Positions 29,613 through 42,617 of a DNA stretch of 64,000 bases are shown piece by piece (position 1 is the first letter of the stretch; every line of letters starts with the position of its first letter). The notes under the pieces are model-generated. The model was not told where the DNA came from and made no database searches. It saw only the letters and a list, made by a program, of their open reading frames with translations. The position numbers and the translations under genes are program-made. The DNA lies in the IMG/VR virus record IMGVR_UViG_3300050343_000199, positions 64,001 through 128,000 of that record; one strand, 5' to 3'. Origin of the DNA: a virus.

Positions 29613-30977
29613 TCAGAGTTCCATCAACCACCAACCACGAAGAGAAGGTGGAATTGTTCTGGCATTAGAGGATCCTTCAATGTCAACAGGACCAGCATAA
29701 ACTAAACCAAAAGCAGCATTTCTAGATTGAACTACAAGTTCTCCAGAATCCCATGCCGTTGATAGTGTTTGACCAGCACCAGCACCAACTCTAGATCCAG
29801 TAGTATCACCTTGAATTGCTGTTTGAACTGCTCCATCTTTCAATGCTCTAATAATTAAACTTGTGTTATAAGTTAGATTTCCGCTAAGTTCCGTAAATCT
29901 AATCATATCGCCAGTTTGAGCATCATTTGGTAAGTACAAGACCATATTACTACCACTAGAAGTATTAACCAAGTAGTTATTATTAACTTCAAGTGGATTA
30001 TCTTGCTGTTGACCAATACCAGTGGTAGGATCAAAATCAAGATATGTATGTCTTCTACCACCATTACCTGTCCAATATTTCTCAATACCAAACGAATCAA
30101 TAGCGTTGTTTTGATAAATCTTGAAGTCTTTCGGACCATCACTACCACCAATACCTGCAGAACCCATATTATCAATATGGAATACTACATCAGATGCATT
30201 TTCAGTAATCAGTAATCTACCAGCTTGATAGAATGTTTCACCCATCTGAAGACTGCCAGTTCTTCCCTGTACACTAAATGAAGGTACAGATGAACAAATA
30301 CCGTTCATCTGGCAATCATCCCAGTAAACTCTAAAATCACCGAAGATATTAGCAGAACCCTTCAGGGTCATGCCATTAGTCTTATTGATAGGATCTTCAA
30401 TAGATCCATCTCCAGAGTGACCATCGTCATTTGCAATTGACAATACTAGAGTTTTACTATCAGAACCATACATTCTAAATGCACCACCATAGATGGTAGT
30501 ATCATCATAGACACTAAGTTCGCCACCATTATATAAGTCATAATATGGTGTTGTTGCAGTATTTGGTTCTCTAATACTCTTAGACATCTTGACTGCATAA
30601 ACTGCATCAAGAGAACCATCAACACTATCAGGAACAAAGAATTCACTACCAATCCTGACATAAGTTGGATAATCTAGTTTAGGTGAAATTAGATCTCCAT
30701 TACGAAGTCTAATCTCTAATCTAACATCGCTAGTATTCGGACTACGAGCCTTAAGGGCAGTTGCACGAGCAGATTGAGTTGCAGGAATGTCATCTAATAG
30801 AACTGTTGTTCTAGGAGCACCAACTAATTTGACAACATTTACACCTGCTTGGAATGCCTGAGCTGTCGTTCCTTCACGTCCTCTACCACCAGAATTATAA
30901 GTAGAATTACTTGATGTTGGTAGAATTAATCCACCAGTATTTGTATCTGTGCGTGGTGTATCAGTTATCTGAATCCG
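29613..30977 (-). CDS. C-terminal part of the giant structural/tail protein (frame open 130 codons upstream of the first ATG)
   Basis: No stop from 30977 to 29613. The upstream part reads IQITDTPRTDTNTGG...GREGTTAQAFQAG. C-terminus ...SLRGWWLMEL. Confidence 0.65.
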   Translation of the reverse strand, partial: RIQITDTPRTDTNTGGLILPTSSNSTYNSGGRGREGTTAQAFQAGVNVVKLVGAPRTTVLLDDIPATQSARATALKARSPNTSDVRLEIRLRNGDLISPKLDYPTYVRIGSEFFVPDSVDGSLDAVYAVKMSKSIREPNTATTPYYDLYNGGELSVYDDTTIYGGAFRMYGSDSKTLVLSIANDDGHSGDGSIEDPINKTNGMTLKGSANIFGDFRVYWDDCQMNGICSSVPSFSVQGRTGSLQMGETFYQAGRLLITENASDVVFHIDNMGSAGIGGSDGPKDFKIYQNNAIDSFGIEKYWTGNGGRRHTYLDFDPTTGIGQQQDNPLEVNNNYLVNTSSGSNMVLYLPNDAQTGDMIRFTELSGNLTYNTSLIIRALKDGAVQTAIQGDTTGSRVGAGAGQTLSTAWDSGELVVQSRNAAFGLVYAGPVDIEGSSNARTIPPSLRGWWLMEL

Positions 30978-33900
30978 TTAATAGTGGTTTTATTAGAATC
31001 AATGAATACATTACCAGTTACAGAATTAATTTCAAATACGGTTGATTCTGTAGAAGTATCACATCCATTCTTAACTCTAAATGATTTGGCAACTTGATCA
31101 AGTAAGGTCTTAACTTTAAATATTTCACCTGTATCATCAACACCATCACCAGAAGGAGTGCCATCATCGCGAGAAATAATAACATAGTCTCCAATACTGA
31201 TGTCTCCACCAAATTGTGCTAGGTAAATATCTTCTTCAGTTCCAGAGTTGTCAAGATTGGTGGTAATCCAAGTAGATTCAAACTGAACAGTACATTTGTA
31301 GATTGCAGCAGTATCGTTATGATCAGATCTAATTTCAGTAAATGTTCCAAATGGAAGTCTCTCAACTATAAGATAATATGGAGCAACGTTGATTCTTGGT
31401 AAAGAAACGATTTTAACAAATTCGGGATGTTTATTACCTGTAATAGCAGTATCAACTAGAAGAATATCATTCTCGGTAAAATACTGAGCATCTTCAGCAT
31501 CAACTGGTTTATTCTTAATTGGTAAGTAATACTGATTACCACTCAATGCAGAAAGAACTTGAGGTTCAACATTTGGAGTACCACCAATTGTAGTAATTTC
31601 ATTCTGGAATACTGTACCACCCCAATCACCACTACCAGAAGTATCTACAGCATTGTATCTCGCATCGGATACAGCAACTCTAGCAACTGTAATAAGATCA
31701 ACATTAGACTTGAATAGATTATTTCCGAGAATACCGCTGGTATGAGTAATCTTACTAGAACCAATTTGTCCTCTATCTGCTGTGAAAGAGTAAGATGCAA
31801 ATCCACCACACAGGGTCATATCAGAATTAAATCTAGCAGTAGAATCAACAATTAAATTGTTTCTAATTCTAGTACTTCCACCCTGACCACCGACTGTAAT
31901 ATCAGAAGCATTAGTTGCAAAATCAAGTTTTGACGTGCTAGAATTACCAGAGAAAAATTCTACAGTGCCTGCAGTAGAAGAAAGTTTAACCGTATCATCA
32001 AGACCTCTTCTTGTACCTAGTTGAATATCACCAGAAACTTTAAGAGCCTTTGTGTCAATTTGAGTAAACGATAAAGATTCGTTGTTGTTATAAGCACCAC
32101 CGATAGTAATCTTAGAAATATTGCTATTAAGATCTGGTGTATTACCAATCCAAATGTTGCTATGCAGAGATTTATTACCAACATAAACATATTGATCTTG
32201 TGTTGTGGTGTTGAGTAGATTTAAAGTTTTTACAGAATTACCAACGTTAAGTGTGCCAGTAAAAGCAGTATCAGTGACTAGATTAAATGTACCACTTGTC
32301 TGAGATGTTCTGATCTCAGCAGTTGTACCGTCGTTGCCATTGACTTCAATGTCATGCTCAAAACGAGCATCATCAGTAAATCTAGATGTACCATCAACAA
32401 CCAGTGCTCTGTCTAGTTCAGCATTAGTTACATTAATACCAACACGACCATTATTTGTAGTTGCAACTCTAAGTGTTGCTTCATTTGCTGGTGTTGCACT
32501 GTCGCCACCAACTAGAAGTGCATAATCAGAAGTTGTTTCAGTTCTATTAGCGAACGCAGGATTACTTAGATAATCAGAAATTATCTTACCACTGATAAAT
32601 GCATTACCAACAACATCAAGGTTTGCACGAGGAGCAGTATCAACATCAACAAATGCAGTCATATATGCATCATGTGCAGATCTTGCGACTGTGTTAATAC
32701 CAAGTTTGTATTGACCAATGTCACTGGTATCAGTTCTAATTGTTTCAGAACCAATAACTCCAAATTCTTTCCAAGAAGAATTAGAGAACTCTAATCTTAC
32801 ATCATTTCCAAGTGCTACCTCACTAGACCAAAGTCTTGGATTGTCATTTGCAACGTTAGATCTGTTTTCAATAATAGCAATTTGACAAGTATTAGCACTG
32901 GCAGTAAATCCATTACCAATGATTTGCCAGAGACCATTAAATCCAGGGTCACTATAGTTAGAAATTCTGATCTGGGATCCGCTGGTAACACCAACTTGAT
33001 CATTAGATAAGTTGTTACCCCAAGTAATGGTGATAACAGTGCTTCCATTCATCTGGAAGTTAAGGAGATTTGCATTAACAACTCGCGCAAAGAAGTTTGC
33101 GTAAATCCATCCAAGAGACCCAGTACCACCAACTTCAGATCCTTTGAGAAGAATATCTCCAGATAATGGAACTTCAGACCCGTACAATACATTTTGGGTA
33201 GTATTAATTGCAGTTCCAAGACCTGTGCTATACACGGGACTTTGATTAGGTGTAATATTTGACCCAATGCTTCCAACTACATGATTTTGAATTTTATAAC
33301 CTTGTGCAGCACCATTTGAACCACGTGGATTAAACTGGAATATTGAGGCAGCAACTCGGTTTCTTGCAATTACAATGTCACCATTTGTATCTTGATTGAG
33401 GAATTGATTAGTCTTATCAAGTGTTGCATCATCACCATCACTAGGTGATACGTTAGAAACTACAGTAAATGCATAATCTCTAACTCTACCCAGAACATTA
33501 ATAGTAACAGGAGAGTTAAATGTACTCATGCGATCTTGAGCATCACCACCATTAACAGTGATGTACTCGTTAAATGTTACAGGAGTATCAAAAGTAGTAA
33601 CAAGACTACCGATATCTTCAGTGTCATCATCAGAATCAACTAATGCAGCAGATTCCAAGAATACTTCTTCACCAGTAATAGCATCAATCTTACGGTTACC
33701 AATGTATAGGTCACCGTTAGAGTTTAGACCAGTGTAGAATACTAAACCACCATTTTGCTTCTTAGACTGTGCATAGAAGTCTTGGGTTGGGGTTAGAACG
33801 ATCTCCTGACGGGCAGGAAGACCGGTTGAATAGTTACCAGGACCGAATCCAAGGTACTCAAAGGTATGGTTACCTGCACGAGCAATAGAGGGTCTTCTAA

Positions 33901-36900
33901 GTTCAACATATAGTCTCTGATCAGACATTACAGTGCTGTCACCAGCAATAGGAATGCGACGATCTTCAGATCCAGATGCAGCATTACCCTTCTGCGCTCT
34001 TAATCTATTATCAATGCTAGAATTAACTTGAGTATAAGTATTCTGCAACAGTGCTTGCTGAGTCGTAAAGTCAAGCATTGCTTCACGAGTCATTGAACCC
34101 TTAAAGTCGTTAACTCTAACAAGACCGTGAGTATAGTTATCTGCAGCAGAATATGTTGCAGGAACATCAAGTTGGGTGTTATCTAACTGCTTGAACCAAA
34201 GAGGATCGTTCTTATAGTTCAGTGGATATAGTTTGCTGATTGGTTGAGAGAACTTAAAGTTACGGAAGTTACCCTGATTACCAGCACCAGTTGGGAATGG
34301 AGAGATGTTACCACGAACAGCAGTTAGATAGTAGATACCATCTTGCTGACCGTAAATACGGCGTTGAACCTCTTCAACATCAAAGATGTAGAAGGTATCA
34401 TCAAGTTCCCCAGTATCAGTTACAGACTCTACGTAGAACTGAACGTTTGCATCGTCAGTAATGATATCACCAGGAGTGATAGTATAAACTTTGGATCCAA
34501 GTTGTCTGTAGTAATATTCTGGATAGTTCTTACGAATAAGATCCTTAATGTATAGTGACTTACCGAAGTCTTCATCAGTCAGTAGGTCAGCAAATACTGC
34601 ACCTTGAGCAAATCGGATATTTTCAAAGACTGAATAATCAATCTTACCAGAAATACCCTTGAGAATCAAATACCAGTCACTTGTATTTGGAACATTGAGT
34701 GCTGCATGTATGAATGCATAACCCGAAGAATTGCCATACCAATCAACTCTGTTTGCAGAATTTGATTGAGTCTTGTTAGCAACGAAAGAACCACCCTGAG
34801 GTGCAGTAACCTTAACTGTAGTAAACGTTTCATTCAACAATCCAACGTTTGTAATACCTAGGTCAAATACAGTTACTTCTAATAGTTCGTCACCACTTTG
34901 TGCATCATTAAAGTATCTACCAGACTGAATAGTCATTGAGACATAATTAGAAGTCTCAATACTCTTAGCGTACTGAGTTGTGCCTACAACGTCTCTCTTA
35001 TATGGATCATATGCAGTCTCTTCATTTAGATTATTACTAAGGAAATCTGCCTTAGTGAAACCAATAACTTCATTTGCTTGTACTGGGTTGAAGAACCTTG
35101 CTTTTGTTACAGAACCAGATACTGGTTTAAGTACAAGTTTTTGTGGCAGAAGTTTTCTAGTTTCATCCTTACGAACTTTAATGGTAAATCCATTAATAGG
35201 ATCACGAACCGCTTGTAAGTACTCAGGAATAACATAACGAAGACGATAGATACGATCATCTTTATCTCTTTCATCCTTGATCCTTTCAAACCAAGCATCG
35301 TTAGTCTTATCTTGACCAGAGATATCGCTATAAGTATTCTCATGCAATCTAGTTAAGATGCTTTCATCATACCTAGGATCATTAACATTAGAAGAATGAT
35401 CCTCAACCTGCATATACCACTTACCATAAATTGCTGGTGTAGTATTTGGATTTAAATATGACGGATCATATTTTACAGGTGATTCACGCTTATCCGCAAA
35501 TGTTGAGAAGTCATAAGAACCAGTCTGGAATGTAATTGCATTAATATCAGCAATTGCATCTGACTTTGTTGCGTGAATAGTGAAAGTTTTTTCAGTTTGA
35601 TATCTTGCCCAGAAGAATTTATCTCCACGAATTCTACCATTACTATCAGAGATAGAACTATCTCCAGCATAGTTAGAACCTACAAGAGGAACACTTCCAC
35701 CCTCATTTGCTCTAAAGAATACCTGATGACCAGAAATATCTGCAAAAGGAACATCAAAGATGTGTGGTACATCAGTACGAATACTAGAGTTAGTATTTGC
35801 CTCTAGGATACAAGAGTATTGATGCAAATCATAATTATCATCTAATACAAATTGATATACATCAATTTCAATATCAGGATCAATAGACTCTACTTCAGCA
35901 GAGTGAATATAGATACCTGCTGCAGCATTTTCTTTGCTGTTTGCAAGCATAATCTTTGTTTGATCTGTTCCGTCAAAGACTGAAGTTCCTTCATAAGGTT
36001 CTGGTTTTGTCTTTCTTGCAGGAGCAATTACATAATACTCTTCGTTGGTTTCAAAACCATTTGGGAGTCTAATCTTTCTCTTGTCAACATCAACATAAGA
36101 GTTGGTTACACTATCATAACGAGGACGTGGAACCAATCTAATTGGTGTACCAGTTTCTAGGTTATGTGGGTTGGCACCAGCACCTGTTCTAAGAGTCCAA
36201 GTTGTTGCTCTAGAAGCAAGTTGTGTGGTAAGTTGAGAAGGTTCTACTCTAGGAATAGTATTCAGACCAGTCTGAATAATCGTTGAGATATTAGTAAAGA
36301 ACTGACGAATAGCAGAAGCTTGATCAGCACACTCTGGATAAGAGGTATGTTGAGTAATAGTATCGTCAACAGTTGGTGAGAACTCAGATGTATATACACC
36401 TGAAGTTAAAGTGAAGTACAGGTAAGAGTTTGTGGTGGTTGCGTTTGCATTTACCGATGGACCAAATGCAAGTCCGAGTGGAGACTCAACTCTATCAACT
36501 GACTGTAAGTATCCAGGATTTGCAATTGTATTATTAACAATCTGGAACAGAGTAGTAACAGCAGATGCTACATTCTGACAAGATCCGTTAGATACAGTTC
36601 TAAGAACAGATGAAAGTGATGTTGGGGTTGATACTGCACTAGAAATAATATTAAAGAGTGTAGTAATAGTTGTTCTTGCATCTTCACACGATCCAACAGA
36701 TAAAGTTCTTGCAACATTAGCAAGAGAAGATGGTGTGTTGATAGCAACAGTAACTAGATCAGTGAAAGTTGTCAGAGATGATTTAACATCATTACACGAT
36801 GCATTAGATAAAGTACGTGTAACACCATATAGTAGATTACTAGAAGTAATGGTATTAGTAAGTATTTGAATCAACGTGGTGATCGTAGCTGCCTGTGAAG

Positions 36901-39900
36901 CACAAACAGGGGATCCATCAGCAGTAATTGTTAGGTCTTTAGATTGAGTTAGAGTTGTATGACCACCAACAGTTACATTTTCATTTCTCATGACCTCAAT
37001 CATGAGAGCACGTGCTTCAGTAAACGCGAAAATTGTTTCTGTTTCTTCACCAGCGACATGTGCCCCAGTAGCATAGAAGTTAGCAGCATCCCATACTCTG
37101 TCATTACCGCCATATGCTAAGTTATGAGCAACAACATCTACAACGTCCTTGATGTCATCAAGACAATCATTACTGTTTCCAGTTGGAACTGTAAATGTAG
37201 GGAAGTTTGCTAACATTCTACCCAAAGCAATCTCAGAAATAAAGTCTTTGTTTGCTAGAATTAAGTTTCTTGCATCTGCAGACTTATTATCTACAGGTGT
37301 AGGAGCATCAACTGTAATAGTTGTGTCTTTTGTCTGAGTTAAACCATGACTACCGACAAGGAGCATGGTTTCATTTCTCATTGCTTGGACCATTAGGTCT
37401 CTAGCATATTCAAGAGCTTGTGTAGTCTGTACTTCTTCACCGGCAACATGAGCACCCTGAACATACAGGTTTGCCATGTCCCAGACTCTATCATTTCCAC
37501 CAAATGCTAAGTTATAAGAAACTTCCTGAACGAAATCATCAATGTCATCAATACAATCTTGAGCGTTGCCAGTTGGAGGAACAAACCCAGGATTCTCAGC
37601 GATCATTCTTTCGTATGCTTCAGCAGCAATCACTGCTTTATTGGAAAGAATTAAGTTGCGAGCATCACCATTACGATCAATTACTGGATCTGGTGTATTA
37701 TATGTAATTGATGTATCATAGGTTTGAGTTAAACCATGAGACCCTACCGAAAGGACCTTTTGGTTTCTCATAACTTGAGCAGCCATTTCTTTTGCTTGCT
37801 CAAAAATATGAAGAGTTTGTGCTTCTTCACCTGCTACATGAGCACCTTTAACATAAGAATAGGCAGCATCCCAAGATTTATCGTTACCACCGTATGCTAA
37901 GTTATCAGCAACTGCTTCTAGAATATCAATAACATCATCAATACAATCCTGTGGATTACCTGTAGGAGTAGTAAATGAAGGGTATACTGTAAGCATTCTT
38001 GCATATGCTTCAGTTGCGATCAAAGTTTTGTTAGCAAGAATTAGATTACGAGCATCACCATAACGATCTTTGACTAGTTCAGGAGCAACATAGGTGATAG
38101 TAGTATCTTTCTGTTGTGATAAACCATGAGATCCAAAGATGAATACATCTTCATTACGCATGACTTGGATGCACATATCTCTAGCATATGTAAATGCTTT
38201 GATAGTCTCATCTTCTTCGCCAGCAACATGAGCGCCGGTTTCATACAAGTATGCTGCATCATAAGTATCAGCATTACCACCAAAAGCAGTATTTTCTGCA
38301 ACTGCTTCAATTACATCAACAATATCATCCTTACAATCCTGTGGATTACCTGTAGGAGTAACAAATCCAGGGAAGTCAAGGACCATGCGATCATATGCTT
38401 CAGCAGCAATGAATGCTTTATTGAGAAGGATTAAATCTTTTGCGTCTCCGTAACGATCAGATACCAGTTTCTTCTCACTGTATACTGCTTTTTGACCCAA
38501 CTCAATTGTAGTTGCATCAATAACACGCTTAACATAAGTGTTATCTGGGATGGCAGGAGAATTAGGACGTGAAGCTCCAGCATTTAACTTACCATCAGTA
38601 AACTCAGAAGGATCGTAATCTGCAACGATCATACCCTGAGAAATACCAGAAGTATCGCCAATGTTTACAATAGAAGATGCTGCTGTAGTAGAAACACCTT
38701 GACGCAGATACGAGAAATTACGCATCGCTGCGATTGCTAAATCTCTCGCGTAATTATATCCTTCTAAAGTTTCTGATAGTTCTCCAGTGATATAAGAGAG
38801 ATTATTTCCAACATAATAAGACTCTGCTGCCTGGATAGTATTAATATTACCACCAAGACGAAGATCTTGTACTGTAGCATCAATCAGATATCCAATATCG
38901 CGACGACATTTCTCAATGCTGATGCCAGATTTAACTACAAGATTTGGATACTTTCCAGTGATAAATCCATATGCTTCAGCAGCAATGAAGCTCTTATTTT
39001 CTTCAATTCTATCTGCTGCATCAAGATCCTTATTATTAAGTACAAGATTGCTAGGATTAAGAATAGATGCAGTTGCAGTAAATTTCTTAAATCCATTTGG
39101 TGATAGAGTAGCATCAAAAATGTTACTAGCACCAGCACTTCTTGGAGTTAGTTTTACATATAGTTTTTCATCACTTCTTGCACCAATTCTGAATCCATCA
39201 ATTGATGCTGCAGGTCTCTTGGCAGGATCATATGCTTCATCATCACCAAAGAAAATTTTACTGTGATTATTAGGATCATTAGATGCTTTTACATCAATAG
39301 TATAGTAAGCATTCTTCTTAGTATTTCCTTGTGTTTCAGGGATAGTTTTTGGAGGAACAATATCCGTGATGTAACCACCCTTATCTTGATTAAAGGCAAA
39401 TCCTTTAAAACCAATAGCATGAAGTGATGTGTTACCGAAGTTAGAGTTAGAGTTGGTGATAGACATATCACCACCACTTTCCATTAGGAAGTGATCAGCA
39501 AAACCAACAGCGAAGATAGAAACGTTCTGAATAAATGCGTCATCTGATGCACGAACGTGGAAGTTTCTCCAGTCATCCTTCCAATATGCATCACCTTTAG
39601 TGTGATATGGAACAGTCGCAAATGCATCAGTTAATGATGCCTGATTAAACGTGTTAGAATACTCATCATAACGAATGAATGCTCTGTCATCTTTCTGCAA
39701 TGAAACGCCCGTATACTGAGCGATAACCATGGATTTAAATCCAGTTGCCTTCAGTCCATTTGCCCAGATTCCGCAAATACCCCAGGTAGAGCGAATAGAG
39801 CAGTTAAAGACATACGGAGACGCGGATTCAACGGAATCAACTTCCGCTTTAACTACCGCATTTGCACTTAATCCACTTTGAGCTGTATATGATGTTCCGC

Positions 39901-40957
39901 TAACTAAACTTACACTGGTTCCAAGAGCTGCAACAGTTCCAGGAATTTTATAAGTAAACTTCCTACCATCTACTAGATCAATATCTTCTACGGGGAAGGT
40001 GCCGTTTAATTGATCATCTAACCCATTGTTTTCAATAGAAACAAACTGGTTCTTGAAATAACCATGATTTACTTTAGTGGTAATATTGACACTGATTGTT
40101 CCTGCAGGAGAGGAATCTACACACTCAATACTTTCAATAGAGCGAATGTCTGATAGAGGACCAACAATTCTAGTTTCTTGGATTCTTTCAGTAAATTCAC
40201 CGGGATCGTCAATTGTTGGTTGATACTGAGAAAATGCCTTAGCAATCTTCTGATAGTATAGACCTAATTCTTCTTTGTCTGCATATTCAAATACAGTTAG
40301 TTTATGGTGAGAATAGTTAGGAATTGCTAACTGATCCCAGTATCCATTCTGATAATATACCTTACCTACACCTTCGTTCTTATTGTAGAGAGGAGAAGAA
40401 GGTTCTAGATCACCATCTTTGATCGTAAACTGCCAGAAATAACATGCACCAGTTACATTAAAGATAGCAGAACGCTTCTCTAACCTGTCTGCAGGATCTG
40501 GGACATATAAAGGACGGACAACAGTCCTACGAAGATCATAACCTACAAGAGATGAACCTCTAGGTAGAATTGCACCACCTTCAGTGTTATTGAATCTATA
40601 AAGGATATTATTTGGATCTGAGATATCAAGATTAGAGTTATCTTCCCACTCATTTAATGCTTGATTGAATGCAAATGCATCAATACCCGTAGTTCCAACA
40701 ATGCCAGGACGGTTATCAATATAATGATTACCAGGCATCAACATGATCGTGAACTGGTCAAAACGATCATTATCGGGACCAGGAAGGTATGAATACCTTG
40801 CAATCTCTAAGAATGCTCTTTGAATAGACTTAAATGGTCTAATTGGGGAATTTCCCCTGTTGTTCAACTCATCCGAAGCATTGAAATCATCGGGGGAGAC
40901 ATACAAATACTTACCAGTTTTACTACTAATAAGATTGTCAAGTCTAGTCAAAGCCAT
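30965..40957 (-). CDS. Giant virion structural/tail fibre protein (>3300 aa), truncated by a frameshift at about 30975
   Basis: MALTRLDNLISSKTGKYLYVSPDDFNASD...RPFKSIQRA N-terminus typical of cyanomyovirus structural proteins. Internal 130-aa repeats. Confidence 0.85.
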   Translation of the reverse strand: MALTRLDNLISSKTGKYLYVSPDDFNASDELNNRGNSPIRPFKSIQRAFLEIARYSYLPGPDNDRFDQFTIMLMPGNHYIDNRPGIVGTTGIDAFAFNQALNEWEDNSNLDISDPNNILYRFNNTEGGAILPRGSSLVGYDLRRTVVRPLYVPDPADRLEKRSAIFNVTGACYFWQFTIKDGDLEPSSPLYNKNEGVGKVYYQNGYWDQLAIPNYSHHKLTVFEYADKEELGLYYQKIAKAFSQYQPTIDDPGEFTERIQETRIVGPLSDIRSIESIECVDSSPAGTISVNITTKVNHGYFKNQFVSIENNGLDDQLNGTFPVEDIDLVDGRKFTYKIPGTVAALGTSVSLVSGTSYTAQSGLSANAVVKAEVDSVESASPYVFNCSIRSTWGICGIWANGLKATGFKSMVIAQYTGVSLQKDDRAFIRYDEYSNTFNQASLTDAFATVPYHTKGDAYWKDDWRNFHVRASDDAFIQNVSIFAVGFADHFLMESGGDMSITNSNSNFGNTSLHAIGFKGFAFNQDKGGYITDIVPPKTIPETQGNTKKNAYYTIDVKASNDPNNHSKIFFGDDEAYDPAKRPAASIDGFRIGARSDEKLYVKLTPRSAGASNIFDATLSPNGFKKFTATASILNPSNLVLNNKDLDAADRIEENKSFIAAEAYGFITGKYPNLVVKSGISIEKCRRDIGYLIDATVQDLRLGGNINTIQAAESYYVGNNLSYITGELSETLEGYNYARDLAIAAMRNFSYLRQGVSTTAASSIVNIGDTSGISQGMIVADYDPSEFTDGKLNAGASRPNSPAIPDNTYVKRVIDATTIELGQKAVYSEKKLVSDRYGDAKDLILLNKAFIAAEAYDRMVLDFPGFVTPTGNPQDCKDDIVDVIEAVAENTAFGGNADTYDAAYLYETGAHVAGEEDETIKAFTYARDMCIQVMRNEDVFIFGSHGLSQQKDTTITYVAPELVKDRYGDARNLILANKTLIATEAYARMLTVYPSFTTPTGNPQDCIDDVIDILEAVADNLAYGGNDKSWDAAYSYVKGAHVAGEEAQTLHIFEQAKEMAAQVMRNQKVLSVGSHGLTQTYDTSITYNTPDPVIDRNGDARNLILSNKAVIAAEAYERMIAENPGFVPPTGNAQDCIDDIDDFVQEVSYNLAFGGNDRVWDMANLYVQGAHVAGEEVQTTQALEYARDLMVQAMRNETMLLVGSHGLTQTKDTTITVDAPTPVDNKSADARNLILANKDFISEIALGRMLANFPTFTVPTGNSNDCLDDIKDVVDVVAHNLAYGGNDRVWDAANFYATGAHVAGEETETIFAFTEARALMIEVMRNENVTVGGHTTLTQSKDLTITADGSPVCASQAATITTLIQILTNTITSSNLLYGVTRTLSNASCNDVKSSLTTFTDLVTVAINTPSSLANVARTLSVGSCEDARTTITTLFNIISSAVSTPTSLSSVLRTVSNGSCQNVASAVTTLFQIVNNTIANPGYLQSVDRVESPLGLAFGPSVNANATTTNSYLYFTLTSGVYTSEFSPTVDDTITQHTSYPECADQASAIRQFFTNISTIIQTGLNTIPRVEPSQLTTQLASRATTWTLRTGAGANPHNLETGTPIRLVPRPRYDSVTNSYVDVDKRKIRLPNGFETNEEYYVIAPARKTKPEPYEGTSVFDGTDQTKIMLANSKENAAAGIYIHSAEVESIDPDIEIDVYQFVLDDNYDLHQYSCILEANTNSSIRTDVPHIFDVPFADISGHQVFFRANEGGSVPLVGSNYAGDSSISDSNGRIRGDKFFWARYQTEKTFTIHATKSDAIADINAITFQTGSYDFSTFADKRESPVKYDPSYLNPNTTPAIYGKWYMQVEDHSSNVNDPRYDESILTRLHENTYSDISGQDKTNDAWFERIKDERDKDDRIYRLRYVIPEYLQAVRDPINGFTIKVRKDETRKLLPQKLVLKPVSGSVTKARFFNPVQANEVIGFTKADFLSNNLNEETAYDPYKRDVVGTTQYAKSIETSNYVSMTIQSGRYFNDAQSGDELLEVTVFDLGITNVGLLNETFTTVKVTAPQGGSFVANKTQSNSANRVDWYGNSSGYAFIHAALNVPNTSDWYLILKGISGKIDYSVFENIRFAQGAVFADLLTDEDFGKSLYIKDLIRKNYPEYYYRQLGSKVYTITPGDIITDDANVQFYVESVTDTGELDDTFYIFDVEEVQRRIYGQQDGIYYLTAVRGNISPFPTGAGNQGNFRNFKFSQPISKLYPLNYKNDPLWFKQLDNTQLDVPATYSAADNYTHGLVRVNDFKGSMTREAMLDFTTQQALLQNTYTQVNSSIDNRLRAQKGNAASGSEDRRIPIAGDSTVMSDQRLYVELRRPSIARAGNHTFEYLGFGPGNYSTGLPARQEIVLTPTQDFYAQSKKQNGGLVFYTGLNSNGDLYIGNRKIDAITGEEVFLESAALVDSDDDTEDIGSLVTTFDTPVTFNEYITVNGGDAQDRMSTFNSPVTINVLGRVRDYAFTVVSNVSPSDGDDATLDKTNQFLNQDTNGDIVIARNRVAASIFQFNPRGSNGAAQGYKIQNHVVGSIGSNITPNQSPVYSTGLGTAINTTQNVLYGSEVPLSGDILLKGSEVGGTGSLGWIYANFFARVVNANLLNFQMNGSTVITITWGNNLSNDQVGVTSGSQIRISNYSDPGFNGLWQIIGNGFTASANTCQIAIIENRSNVANDNPRLWSSEVALGNDVRLEFSNSSWKEFGVIGSETIRTDTSDIGQYKLGINTVARSAHDAYMTAFVDVDTAPRANLDVVGNAFISGKIISDYLSNPAFANRTETTSDYALLVGGDSATPANEATLRVATTNNGRVGINVTNAELDRALVVDGTSRFTDDARFEHDIEVNGNDGTTAEIRTSQTSGTFNLVTDTAFTGTLNVGNSVKTLNLLNTTTQDQYVYVGNKSLHSNIWIGNTPDLNSNISKITIGGAYNNNESLSFTQIDTKALKVSGDIQLGTRRGLDDTVKLSSTAGTVEFFSGNSSTSKLDFATNASDITVGGQGGSTRIRNNLIVDSTARFNSDMTLCGGFASYSFTADRGQIGSSKITHTSGILGNNLFKSNVDLITVARVAVSDARYNAVDTSGSGDWGGTVFQNEITTIGGTPNVEPQVLSALSGNQYYLPIKNKPVDAEDAQYFTENDILLVDTAITGNKHPEFVKIVSLPRINVAPYYLIVERLPFGTFTEIRSDHNDTAAIYKCTVQFESTWITTNLDNSGTEEDIYLAQFGGDISIGDYVIISRDDGTPSGDGVDDTGEIFKVKTLLDQVAKSFRVKNGCDTSTESTVFEINSVTGNVFIDSNKTTINGFR
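36900..38460 (-). repeat. Four tandem ~130-aa protein repeats
   Basis: D(R/N)xxDA(K/R)xLILxNK units start at about 38458, 38068, 37678 and 37291 (390, 390, 387 nt spacing). Confidence 0.85.
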
Positions 40958-40997
40958 ATTACTCAACCGCTGCGGTTACTAAGATCTGATCTCAGAT

Positions 40998-41106: not shown

Positions 41107-41718
41107 TTAGTTTGTAACTAAAGAATGCAACCACCCTGTAGCAATATATTTAATTTCGCTTTTGGGTGGGTATCCACGATGAAAAAAAGTCCAACATGCC
41201 GGAAAAATGATCATTCTTCCAGTCTTGGGTTGAATTTTTGTACCATCAATAAATTCTGTGTAACCATCTTCTACGATATCATTAAGATACCATATAAACG
41301 TTAACAGGCGAACACCACTATTTTCAATTTCAGACTTAATTGTATTAAAGTCACTATGCCAAGTATATCCAGAATTAGGATTAGTTCTTTGTATTTGATA
41401 CCCAGAATCTTTCATTTCATTTAGCAAGATTTCAATAGTATCTTTATTAGTGCGTTCTTTAATGATCTCACTATTTACATAATTTCTTAAATGCTCAGTA
41501 AGAGTTTTACAAAATACATCATCTTCATATTTCCAATCGGAAAGAGAAGAAATTTGTAGATCGGTAGAATCTTTTACTTCTTTGTTAATATAACCATGAC
41601 CAATATGACCTTCAAATTTACGCTCGTCTGCTTCAAATTTTTCAATACATGTTTTACAGAAATGCTCACTTAAGGCATTATCTGCACAGTATATAAATTC
41701 TGAATACTGAAAAGACAT
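41107..41718 (-). CDS. 2OG-Fe(II) oxygenase (prolyl-hydroxylase-like)
   Basis: WHSD...TFIWYLND...FPACWTFFHRG...KYIATGW. Confidence 0.9.
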   Translation of the reverse strand: MSFQYSEFIYCADNALSEHFCKTCIEKFEADERKFEGHIGHGYINKEVKDSTDLQISSLSDWKYEDDVFCKTLTEHLRNYVNSEIIKERTNKDTIEILLNEMKDSGYQIQRTNPNSGYTWHSDFNTIKSEIENSGVRLLTFIWYLNDIVEDGYTEFIDGTKIQPKTGRMIIFPACWTFFHRGYPPKSEIKYIATGWLHSLVTN

Positions 41719-41756
41719 AATACGAAGACATAAGGAAGGGGCATCTCACCCCTCAG

Positions 41757-41940
41757 AACTACTTGGTTAACAAGGCTAGTTTAACCCCGATCTCCCATTC
41801 AGGCAGTCGCGAGTTCGCGAGTGCGGGAGAATGCAACGATATTATTCGCTGCGGTGTCAGATGTTTTTGCATCTATGGTTTGCTTATCCAAGCAGGTTTC
41901 AGTAACACTCCTTATACCCCGTCTAAACCATGGCACCCCC
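41757..41940 (-). ncRNA. ssrA: tmRNA coding piece (permuted two-piece tmRNA)
   Basis: 5' GGGGGTG-CCATGGTTTAGAC-GGGGTATAAGGAGTGTTAC (tRNA-like 5' arm and helix 2). Tag ORF at 41849-41799 encodes ANNIVAFSRTRELATA*. TCTCCC/GGGAGA helix encloses the stop. 3' end approximate. Confidence 0.9.
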
Positions 41941-41945
41941 AGGAG

Positions 41946-42027
41946 TGGGCAGAGTTGGATTTGAACCAACGTAGGCAGAGCCAGAAGATTTACAGTCTTC
42001 CTCCTTTAACCACTCGGACATCTACCC
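41946..42027 (-). tRNA. trnY: tRNA-Tyr (GTA), nested between the two tmRNA pieces
   Basis: GGGTAGA/TCTGCCC acceptor, GAAGA-CTGTAAA-TCTTC anticodon arm, long variable arm, GGTTCAAATCC. Confidence 0.95.
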
Positions 42028-42029
42028 AA

Positions 42030-42080
42030 TGGAGGTGAGGGGAATTGAACCCCTGTCCGAAATACCGGTGGTGTCACCTA
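42030..42080 (-). ncRNA. ssrA: tmRNA acceptor piece
   Basis: GTGACAC...GTATTTC-GGAC-AGGGG-TTCAATT-CCCCT-CACCTCC-A. CACCTCC pairs with GGGGGTG giving G3-U70, discriminator A73. 5' end approximate. Confidence 0.9.
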
Positions 42081-42096
42081 TTCCACAAAAGTGGAA

Positions 42097-42169
42097 AGCC
42101 AAACACAGGACTTGAACCTGCGACCTGATCTTTACAAAAGACCTGCTCTACCAGCTGAGCTAGTTTGGC
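42097..42169 (-). tRNA. trnT: tRNA-Thr (TGT)
   Basis: GCCAAAC/GTTTGGC acceptor, GGTCT-TTTGTAA-AGATC anticodon arm. Confidence 0.95.
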
Positions 42170-42617
42170 GTTTAAACTCTAAATGTCCCCATTGAGATCC
42201 CCAGAGTTTTTTTCCAGTCTCAGGATTAATTCCTGAATCCATGACCTTGTAGTCATTATAACCTAAAATTATGCTGTTTGTCAAGTAAGTTTTAATTCCT
42301 TTCCAAAACACCCAGCAAGTACATTCAGTATTACTACCGTGATATTTGCTTCCAATCAATTCAAATAATGTATCGCATCCTTCTTTATATACACCTTTTA
42401 GGTCATAATTTTTGACGCGAATTTTTTCCCCTTCTGGGAAAATACGAATTAGAAATTTCCTATAGGGTTCTCTTTTATGAAAAGATTGGGTGCCCTCAAA
42501 CCAATCACCACCAATCCACCTATGCTTGATAATAATTCTAGCATATCTAGTAGGATATTTTAATGCCTGTTCTTTATTGTCAAAAGTACCTTCAATATAA
42601 TCATGAAAACGTGTCAT
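42132..42617 (-). CDS. cpeT: CpeT/CpcT-type phycobilin lyase-like protein
   Basis: EGTFDNKEQALKYPTRYARI...PYRKF...GCD...C...LWGS..G..EFKR. Confidence 0.75.
   Translation of the reverse strand: MTRFHDYIEGTFDNKEQALKYPTRYARIIIKHRWIGGDWFEGTQSFHKREPYRKFLIRIFPEGEKIRVKNYDLKGVYKEGCDTLFELIGSKYHGSNTECTCWVFWKGIKTYLTNSIILGYNDYKVMDSGINPETGKKLWGSQWGHLEFKRQTSSAGRAGLL

Follow-up and report, generated by a model that had tools for sequence, protein, structure and literature searches.

Permuted tmRNA genes of cyanomyoviruses recurrently carry a canonical tRNA gene in their spacer

Tightly packed arrangements of stable RNA genes include the tRNA cluster of phage T4, in which dimeric precursors are cut by RNase P and RNase BN/Z with repair of the CCA end, the tRNA punctuation of mitochondria and the tRNAs found in the spacers of rRNA operons. 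Two-piece tmRNAs have been published for marine and aquatic phages, with AG-345-P14 listed among the tmRNA-encoding phages (Buchholz et al. 2022, PMC9004378), and earlier tmRNA surveys listed only the tmRNAs of mycobacteriophages and Bacillus phage G (PMC4131195). The published work on phage two-piece tmRNAs is silent on a tRNA in the spacer between the two pieces (PMC9004378). One intact tRNA-Ala has been reported in the spacer of a permuted tmRNA from a nominally archaeal MAG, where it was called 'a unique feature' (PMC11915505, 2025). No description of a tRNA nested in a cyanophage tmRNA gene was found in the literature, such that the statement in the first-pass annotation of this DNA that the architecture had not been described holds for cyanophages but has to be qualified by the tRNA-Ala case. 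As set out below, a permuted tmRNA with a canonical tRNA as its spacer cargo is a recurrent and dynamic arrangement in cyanomyoviruses and involves no new principle.

The locus lies in a stretch of 64,000 nucleotides (the window) that is part of a complete uncultivated viral genome of 192,818 bp, the nearest relatives of this phage being T4-like Synechococcus myoviruses of the Kyanoviridae. ARAGORN calls, all on the minus strand, a permuted tmRNA at 41708-42119, a tRNA-Tyr(gta) within it at 41945-42027 and a tRNA-Thr(tgt) directly upstream of it (Table 1). Reading along this strand, the discriminator of the acceptor piece (A, 42030) is followed by TT (42029-42028) and G1 of the tRNA-Tyr (42027), and the tRNA discriminator (A, 41946) is followed by CTCCT (41945-41941) and G1 of the coding piece (41940). 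The coordinates, both spacer lengths (2 and 5 nt) and the tRNA size of 82 nt given in the first-pass annotation are thus all exact, and the identity of the intervening segment as a complete tRNA-Tyr gene is confirmed by ARAGORN and Rfam.

Table 1. Coordinates of the nested tmRNA and tRNA-Tyr locus in the window, listed in minus-strand order.
Feature	Position	Strand	Basis
Promoter-like element, sigma-70-type, TTGACA-18-TATAAT	42255..42284	-	12/12 consensus match
tRNA-Thr(TGT); 3' end abuts first base of tmRNA acceptor piece	42097..42169	-	ARAGORN, sequence
tmRNA acceptor piece: 5' hairpin (42096-42081), long-helix strand, T-arm, acceptor 3' strand CACCTCC, discriminator A at 42030; no CCA encoded	42030..42096	-	Rfam cyano_tmRNA alignment, sequence, predicted fold
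Intervening segment, 89 nt: TT + tRNA-Tyr + CTCCT	41941..42029	-	Rfam alignment, sequence
tRNA-Tyr(GTA), 82 nt, class II, long variable arm, discriminator A; no CCA encoded	41946..42027	-	ARAGORN, Rfam
tmRNA coding piece, G1 = 41940: acceptor 5' strand GGGGGTG (G3 pairs with U), tag frame, downstream helices, terminal hairpin	41736..41940	-	Rfam alignment
Tag reading frame and stop codon; ARAGORN reading AKTSDTAANNIVAFSRTRELATA followed by the stop	41799..41870	-	ARAGORN, Rfam alignment to host consensus
Terminator-like hairpin closing the unit; also last stem of Rfam model	41736..41754	-	Hairpin scan, Rfam

Behind the tmRNA, a 2OG-Fe(II) oxygenase gene (41107-41718, minus strand) lies between the tmRNA and a tRNA-Asn, as it does in the closest relatives, while in L018, L024 and Sf-FS3 the tRNA-Asn is much closer behind the tmRNA, which leaves no space for this ORF. 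A single ORF of 3,333 codons (30965-40966, minus strand) follows immediately downstream of the tRNA cluster in the window, and on the corresponding side of the cluster the annotation of Sf-FS3 shows a large protein with a peptidase S74 domain. In the related cyanophage contig L059, the Rfam PhotoRC-II and wcaG RNA motifs are found near the tmRNA at 714-807 and 2764-2858.

The tmRNA is a genuine phage-encoded gene of the cyanobacterial two-piece type. It matches the Rfam model cyano_tmRNA (RF01851) with 134.1 bits (cut-off 70) over model positions 1-288 of 288 and tmRNA_permuted (RF04321) with 85.8 bits (cut-off 47) over positions 1-213 of 213, both alignments showing an insert of 87-89 nt that exactly separates the acceptor 3' strand from G1 of the coding piece. 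Its parts stand in permuted order, as read from the sequence and flagged by ARAGORN, in that the T-arm and the 3' strand of the acceptor stem come before the 5' strand of that stem and the tag frame. The features of alanine identity are present, with the pairing of GGGGGTG and CACCTCC including G3-U70 and with the discriminator A73 at 42030; G3-U70 and A73 are determinants for AlaRS. The tag frame ends in a stop codon and the tag core ANNIVAFSR is kept in all relatives, with the true resume codon perhaps lying at the host-like ANNIV... rather than at the ARAGORN start. No SmpB (PF01668) was found in the complete phage genome, and the host SmpB must therefore serve, as is assumed for other phage tmRNAs.

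The phage tags vary outside this core. By the ARAGORN reading all of them have extra N-terminal codons ahead of the host-like ANNIV core, the tags of some lineages have an inserted MTREF... stretch, and the C-termini in the window and its relatives read ...LATA, ...STVAA, ...LVAA or ...LVTA.

The insertion of a tRNA could have disabled the tmRNA, or the nested tRNA could itself be a decaying remnant, and the fact that the tag ends in -ATA and not in the usual -AA might be taken to indicate the former. However, tags ending in -ATA are also found in the un-nested tmRNAs of Sf-FS3 and AG-345-P14, the scores of nested tmRNAs match those of un-nested ones among related contigs (108-159 bits vs 120-143 bits), and the G3-U pair, the T-arm and the tag frame are all intact. 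Judged by these features the tmRNA in the window looks functional. With regard to the tRNA, the insert alone scores 58.4 bits on the Rfam tRNA model (RF00005, cut-off 29) over the 82 nt at 41946-42027, with the anticodon GTA in a 7-nt loop (ARAGORN and Rfam) and, in the alignment, a variable region of 13 nt with a 3-bp stem and a terminal A. In a comparison of four nested variants with two free-standing cyanophage copies of tRNA-Tyr, both sides had changed with pairing kept in six of 24 pairs, located in the acceptor, anticodon and variable stems. In addition, this is the sole tRNA-Tyr among the 10 tRNAs of the complete phage genome, and a free-standing copy is absent where the nested copy is present (see below). 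That either gene is dead is accordingly very improbable. The pattern of substitution indicates that the nested tRNA-Tyr is intact and under selection, and it looks functional; the first-pass description of a functional 82-nt tRNA is supported, as regards an intact tRNA under selection, by the compensatory pairs and by the tRNA being the only one of its kind in the genome.

A tRNA in the intervening segment recurs among permuted cyanophage ssrA loci. Scanning IMG/VR with an exact, and as such narrow, pattern identified 79 cyanophage-type tmRNA genes, with a spacer of 5-9 nt in 58 contigs and of 79-90 nt in the other 21, every one of which has exactly one whole tRNA in this position. Spacers of 31-61, 101-131, 132-162 or 163-193 nt were not found in IMG/VR with this pattern, and neither partial cargos nor double tRNAs were found in IMG/VR within its reach; the lack of other lengths in these ranges implies that the cargo is always exactly one tRNA. 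A scan of JGI metagenomes added further nested contigs, from many samples, and one more cargo. The un-nested relatives Sf-FS3, S-CAM1, S-CAM3 and AG-345-P14 have a matching tmRNA with a 5-nt spacer (CTCAT, TTCTT or TTCAG), S-SSM7 and S-SSM6a are also un-nested, and the closest of the deposited phage records, Sf-FS3, is thus one with a short spacer. In the phage records examined, the annotation of these loci lacks a tmRNA feature.

The genome to which the window belongs is that of an uncultivated virus, and a BLAST search of 50,697 GenBank phage records with the nested Tyr, Asn-1 and Asn-2 forms gave no match covering at least 80% of the query and no cultured phage with the nested form, as might be expected had assembly or binning joined a tRNA into a tmRNA gene. 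Against this, identical junctions recur in numerous independent contigs, drawn from two collections and from different metagenomes, and these contigs differ from each other in the sequence of both cargo and backbone, such that the probability of an artefact is negligible. Chance or assembly artefact as the source of the nested layout was rejected on the 21 IMG/VR contigs and the metagenome contigs from many samples.

No cellular genome with the nested layout was found, the scan of genome contigs having returned only NYWG01000192.1 (25,856 bp; L007, identical to L085), a cyanophage contig with a nested Tyr-tmRNA that has been binned in a public MAG labelled Verrucomicrobiales. Similar mis-binning could be the source of the published 'archaeal' tmRNA with a tRNA-Ala in its spacer. 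Long tmRNA spacers exist in cells too, with other content: in the host-type tmRNA genes L086, L089, L095-L098, L104 and L107, which have the acceptor strand CAGCTCC and, where ARAGORN called a tag, the tag ANNIVRFSRQAAPVAA, the spacers are G+C-rich, 70-99 nt long and free of tRNAs.

Across IMG/VR and the JGI metagenomes four classes of cargo were found, with three identities (Tyr, two unrelated Asn, and Asp) and distinct junctions. The Tyr(GTA) cargo is preceded by TT or TC and followed by CTCCT, CTCT, CTTTT or CTCTT, while Asn(GTT) class 1 has CTGA on the 5' side and TAT on the 3' side. Asn(GTT) class 2, with an unrelated acceptor stem, is preceded by CCAA or CCTT and followed by TCAT and variants thereof, and the Asp(GTC) cargo lies between CCA and TTTTT(G). 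In the Asp class, as in those members of Asn class 2 that have CCAA on the 5' side, the CCA of the tmRNA is encoded directly ahead of the tRNA cargo. Empty spacers of 8-9 nt such as CCTTTGCAA are suggestive of deletion scars of an Asn cargo, with which they share their first bases, a likeness too short to be proof.

These junctions raise the question of whether the nested tRNA serves as a dedicated punctuation device, favoured by selection because the tmRNA pieces are released better, or at the right time, through its RNase P and RNase Z sites, with coupling of the supplies of the two RNAs. The junctions of all four cargo classes are very short, with 2-4 nt 5' and 3-5 nt 3' of the tRNA, and independent cargo classes have converged on one site. 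Moreover, in the Asp class G1 of the tRNA directly follows the encoded CCA of the tmRNA, and a single cut by RNase P would by itself generate the mature 3' end of the tmRNA. A benefit to maturation, if there is one, would be most plausible in this CCA-abutting class. However, short spacers are the rule across phage tRNA arrays, with for example 3 nt between tRNA-Leu and tRNA-Met in the window, and about three-quarters of the related phage tmRNA genes, including that of Sf-FS3, have a spacer of 5-9 nt and equal model scores.

The distribution of nested and empty forms was followed on a maximum-likelihood tree of the tmRNA body, built from 62 non-redundant rows of approximately 300 nt with the spacer excluded. 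At least 13 changes between the nested and the empty state are required on this tree, of which at least eight are forced by well-supported branches; taken by cargo, Tyr requires at least four and Asn class 2 at least three, and the two Asp rows do not group. Since the alignment is short and these phages recombine, such changes are a mixture of true gains and losses with exchange of cassettes. On several occasions a nested form and an empty one are each other's sister, as with L013 and L035 (support 100/99), which again speaks against selection of the tRNA for release of the tmRNA pieces and renders that explanation unlikely. In L011 the exact spacer of the window is found on a tmRNA backbone of another clade, which suggests that cassettes are exchanged by recombination between flanks that hardly vary.

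The tRNA-Tyr has also relocated between sites. In L102, with a nested Asp, and L056, with an empty spacer, a tRNA-Tyr lies outside the spacer, immediately upstream of a tRNA-Ser, while in the syntenic contigs L011 and L100 it is absent beside the tRNA-Ser and present in the tmRNA spacer, with the nested tRNA-Tyr of L100 having the same sequence as the free-standing gene. Among the syntenic contigs the tRNA-Tyr is thus either free-standing beside tRNA-Ser or nested, and never both. Within the DNA fetched, in which the window genome is the only complete one, no locus has a second copy of the kind of tRNA that it carries nested. It is conceivable, if rather doubtful, that the spacer is a phage-specific landing site, at which tRNA genes enter and leave as exact units from G1 to the discriminator without flanking DNA, with CCA/GGG microhomology or an RNA intermediate as the possible route, and where the cargo also benefits the tmRNA, as in the Asp class through an end that RNase P alone would finish. 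Such a site, if real, would represent a phage-specific mechanism of tRNA-gene mobility and co-maturation.

Transcription of the locus probably starts from one promoter. A consensus scan placed a predicted promoter approximately 86 nt upstream of tRNA-Thr, in the 3' end of a cpeT-like ORF, and the element recurs at equal distance in the window-like loci L006, L007, L015, L016, L019, L023 and L024 and also in the un-nested L060, L065 and L076. With this conserved element in front and a hairpin behind the tmRNA, likewise from a consensus scan, framing tRNA-Thr, acceptor piece, tRNA-Tyr and coding piece, a single transcription unit is plausible. The single precursor with these four parts proposed in the first-pass annotation is made plausible by the 12/12 promoter conserved in relatives and the closing hairpin, co-transcription being deduced from these signals. 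In the minimum-energy fold predicted for the precursor, the tRNA-Tyr cloverleaf lies inside a loop closed by the tmRNA acceptor stem and the long helix between acceptor and coding pieces is formed, with a fold energy that is not better than that of shuffled sequence (z = -1.05).

Part of the locus is contained in 14 runs on record as RNA, and comparison of four of them with the window identified one metatranscriptome contig that corresponds to 41754-41940 without differences and stops exactly where the cut by RNase P is predicted, at G1 of the coding piece. The RNA evidence consists of assembled contigs, which can give neither ends nor levels, and the oligo-dT runs cover scattered pieces of ORFs at low depth, such that stretches without coverage carry no information. 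As contigs cannot prove ends and carry-over of DNA is possible, the contig end at 41940 gives only a weak indication that the coding piece builds up as an RNA of its own.

The cpeT-like ORF (42132-42617, minus strand) matches Pfam CpeT with 84.6 bits and runs 38 nt into tRNA-Thr, the match to the profile stopping near residue 150-152 of 161. The tmRNAs of S-CAM1, S-CAM3 and AG-345-P14 (L003, L004 and L005) have their own promoter-like element, TTGACA ... TATATA, directly upstream and no fused tRNA-Thr, and in S-CAM1 and S-CAM3 the tmRNA runs up to or into a tRNA-Arg at its 3' end.

In the maturation pathway that we infer, including co-transcription, the enzymes and the order of the cuts, the promoter upstream of tRNA-Thr would drive a precursor comprising leader, tRNA-Thr, acceptor piece, UU, tRNA-Tyr, CUCCU, coding piece and hairpin, in which the acceptor stem of the tmRNA would close around the cloverleaf of the tRNA-Tyr. 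Cuts by host RNase P would fall at G1 of both the tRNA-Tyr and the coding piece, host RNase Z or exonucleases would remove what lies behind each of the three discriminators by cleavage or trimming, and the CCA-adding enzyme would complete the three 3' ends, being needed for all of them since no CCA is encoded. The cuts that release the nested tRNA would in this way free both pieces of the tmRNA, with host SmpB as the protein partner of the product. Cleavage by RNase P at G1 of the tRNA-Tyr had been suggested to release the 3' end of the tmRNA, and this remains the natural reading of cuts at tRNA ends; however, such a cut would leave UU on the acceptor piece, so that trimming and CCA addition would still be needed in the Tyr class. 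The proposed 1:1 coupling of tRNA-Tyr and tmRNA would likewise apply to synthesis only and does not extend to steady-state levels.

The spacer lies between two tRNA-like ends that are already processed by host enzymes, and as such any tRNA placed there would be released at no cost. We therefore favour, with a probability of roughly three in four, the reading that the spacer is a permissive and exchangeable slot of the phage tRNA array that may hold Tyr, Asn, Asp or nothing, reshuffled, as we envisage it, by recombination between the highly conserved tmRNA flanks. That most relatives have no cargo and that their tmRNA genes are equally well conserved argues against a need for it. A dependence of tmRNA maturation on the nested tRNA, as the first-pass annotation would have it, is not supported in view of the equally good tmRNA scores of the 58 of 79 IMG/VR contigs and six phage records with a spacer of 5-9 nt and of the number of times that the state flips on the tree.

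The spacers of tmRNA genes have hitherto been treated as throw-away sequence, and approximately one-quarter of the cyanomyovirus tmRNA genes found here carry a decoding tRNA in this position. The loci provide natural matched pairs, nested or with a 5-nt spacer and with CCA encoded or not, for studies of maturation by RNase P, RNase Z and the CCA-adding enzyme, and they allow tRNA genes to be seen moving as exact units between the slots of phage tRNA arrays. In practical terms, one of the two genes will be lost in annotation wherever a pipeline discards tmRNA calls that overlap with a tRNA or retains no more than the top hit per clan.

In comparison with known systems, the locus shares with the two-piece tmRNAs of marine picocyanobacteria (RF01851, RF04321) and aquatic phages (PMC9004378) the order of acceptor piece, spacer and coding piece, a tRNA-like domain with G3-U, the ANNIV...FSR core of the tag and a match to the models over their full length, and it differs from them in that the spacer of the window is a complete canonical tRNA gene and the tmRNA is fused to a tRNA-Thr at its 5' end. 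It resembles the nominally archaeal case (PMC11915505) in that the spacer of a permuted tmRNA contains a tRNA gene with a high score. That case is a single instance, covered in one sentence without analysis, with another identity (tRNA-Ala) and an uncertain origin, whereas the arrangement described here is found in dozens of phage contigs with three identities and four classes of cargo and with evidence of exchange and relocation. The likeness to the T4 tRNA cluster, mitochondrial punctuation and the tRNAs of rRNA operon spacers is by analogy, in that closely packed stable RNA genes are co-transcribed in those systems and then parted by the enzymes that process tRNA ends, and cuts at the ends of a tRNA would here likewise create the end of its neighbour. 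Unlike in any of these, the tRNA of the window lies topologically inside another RNA gene, in the loop of its acceptor stem.
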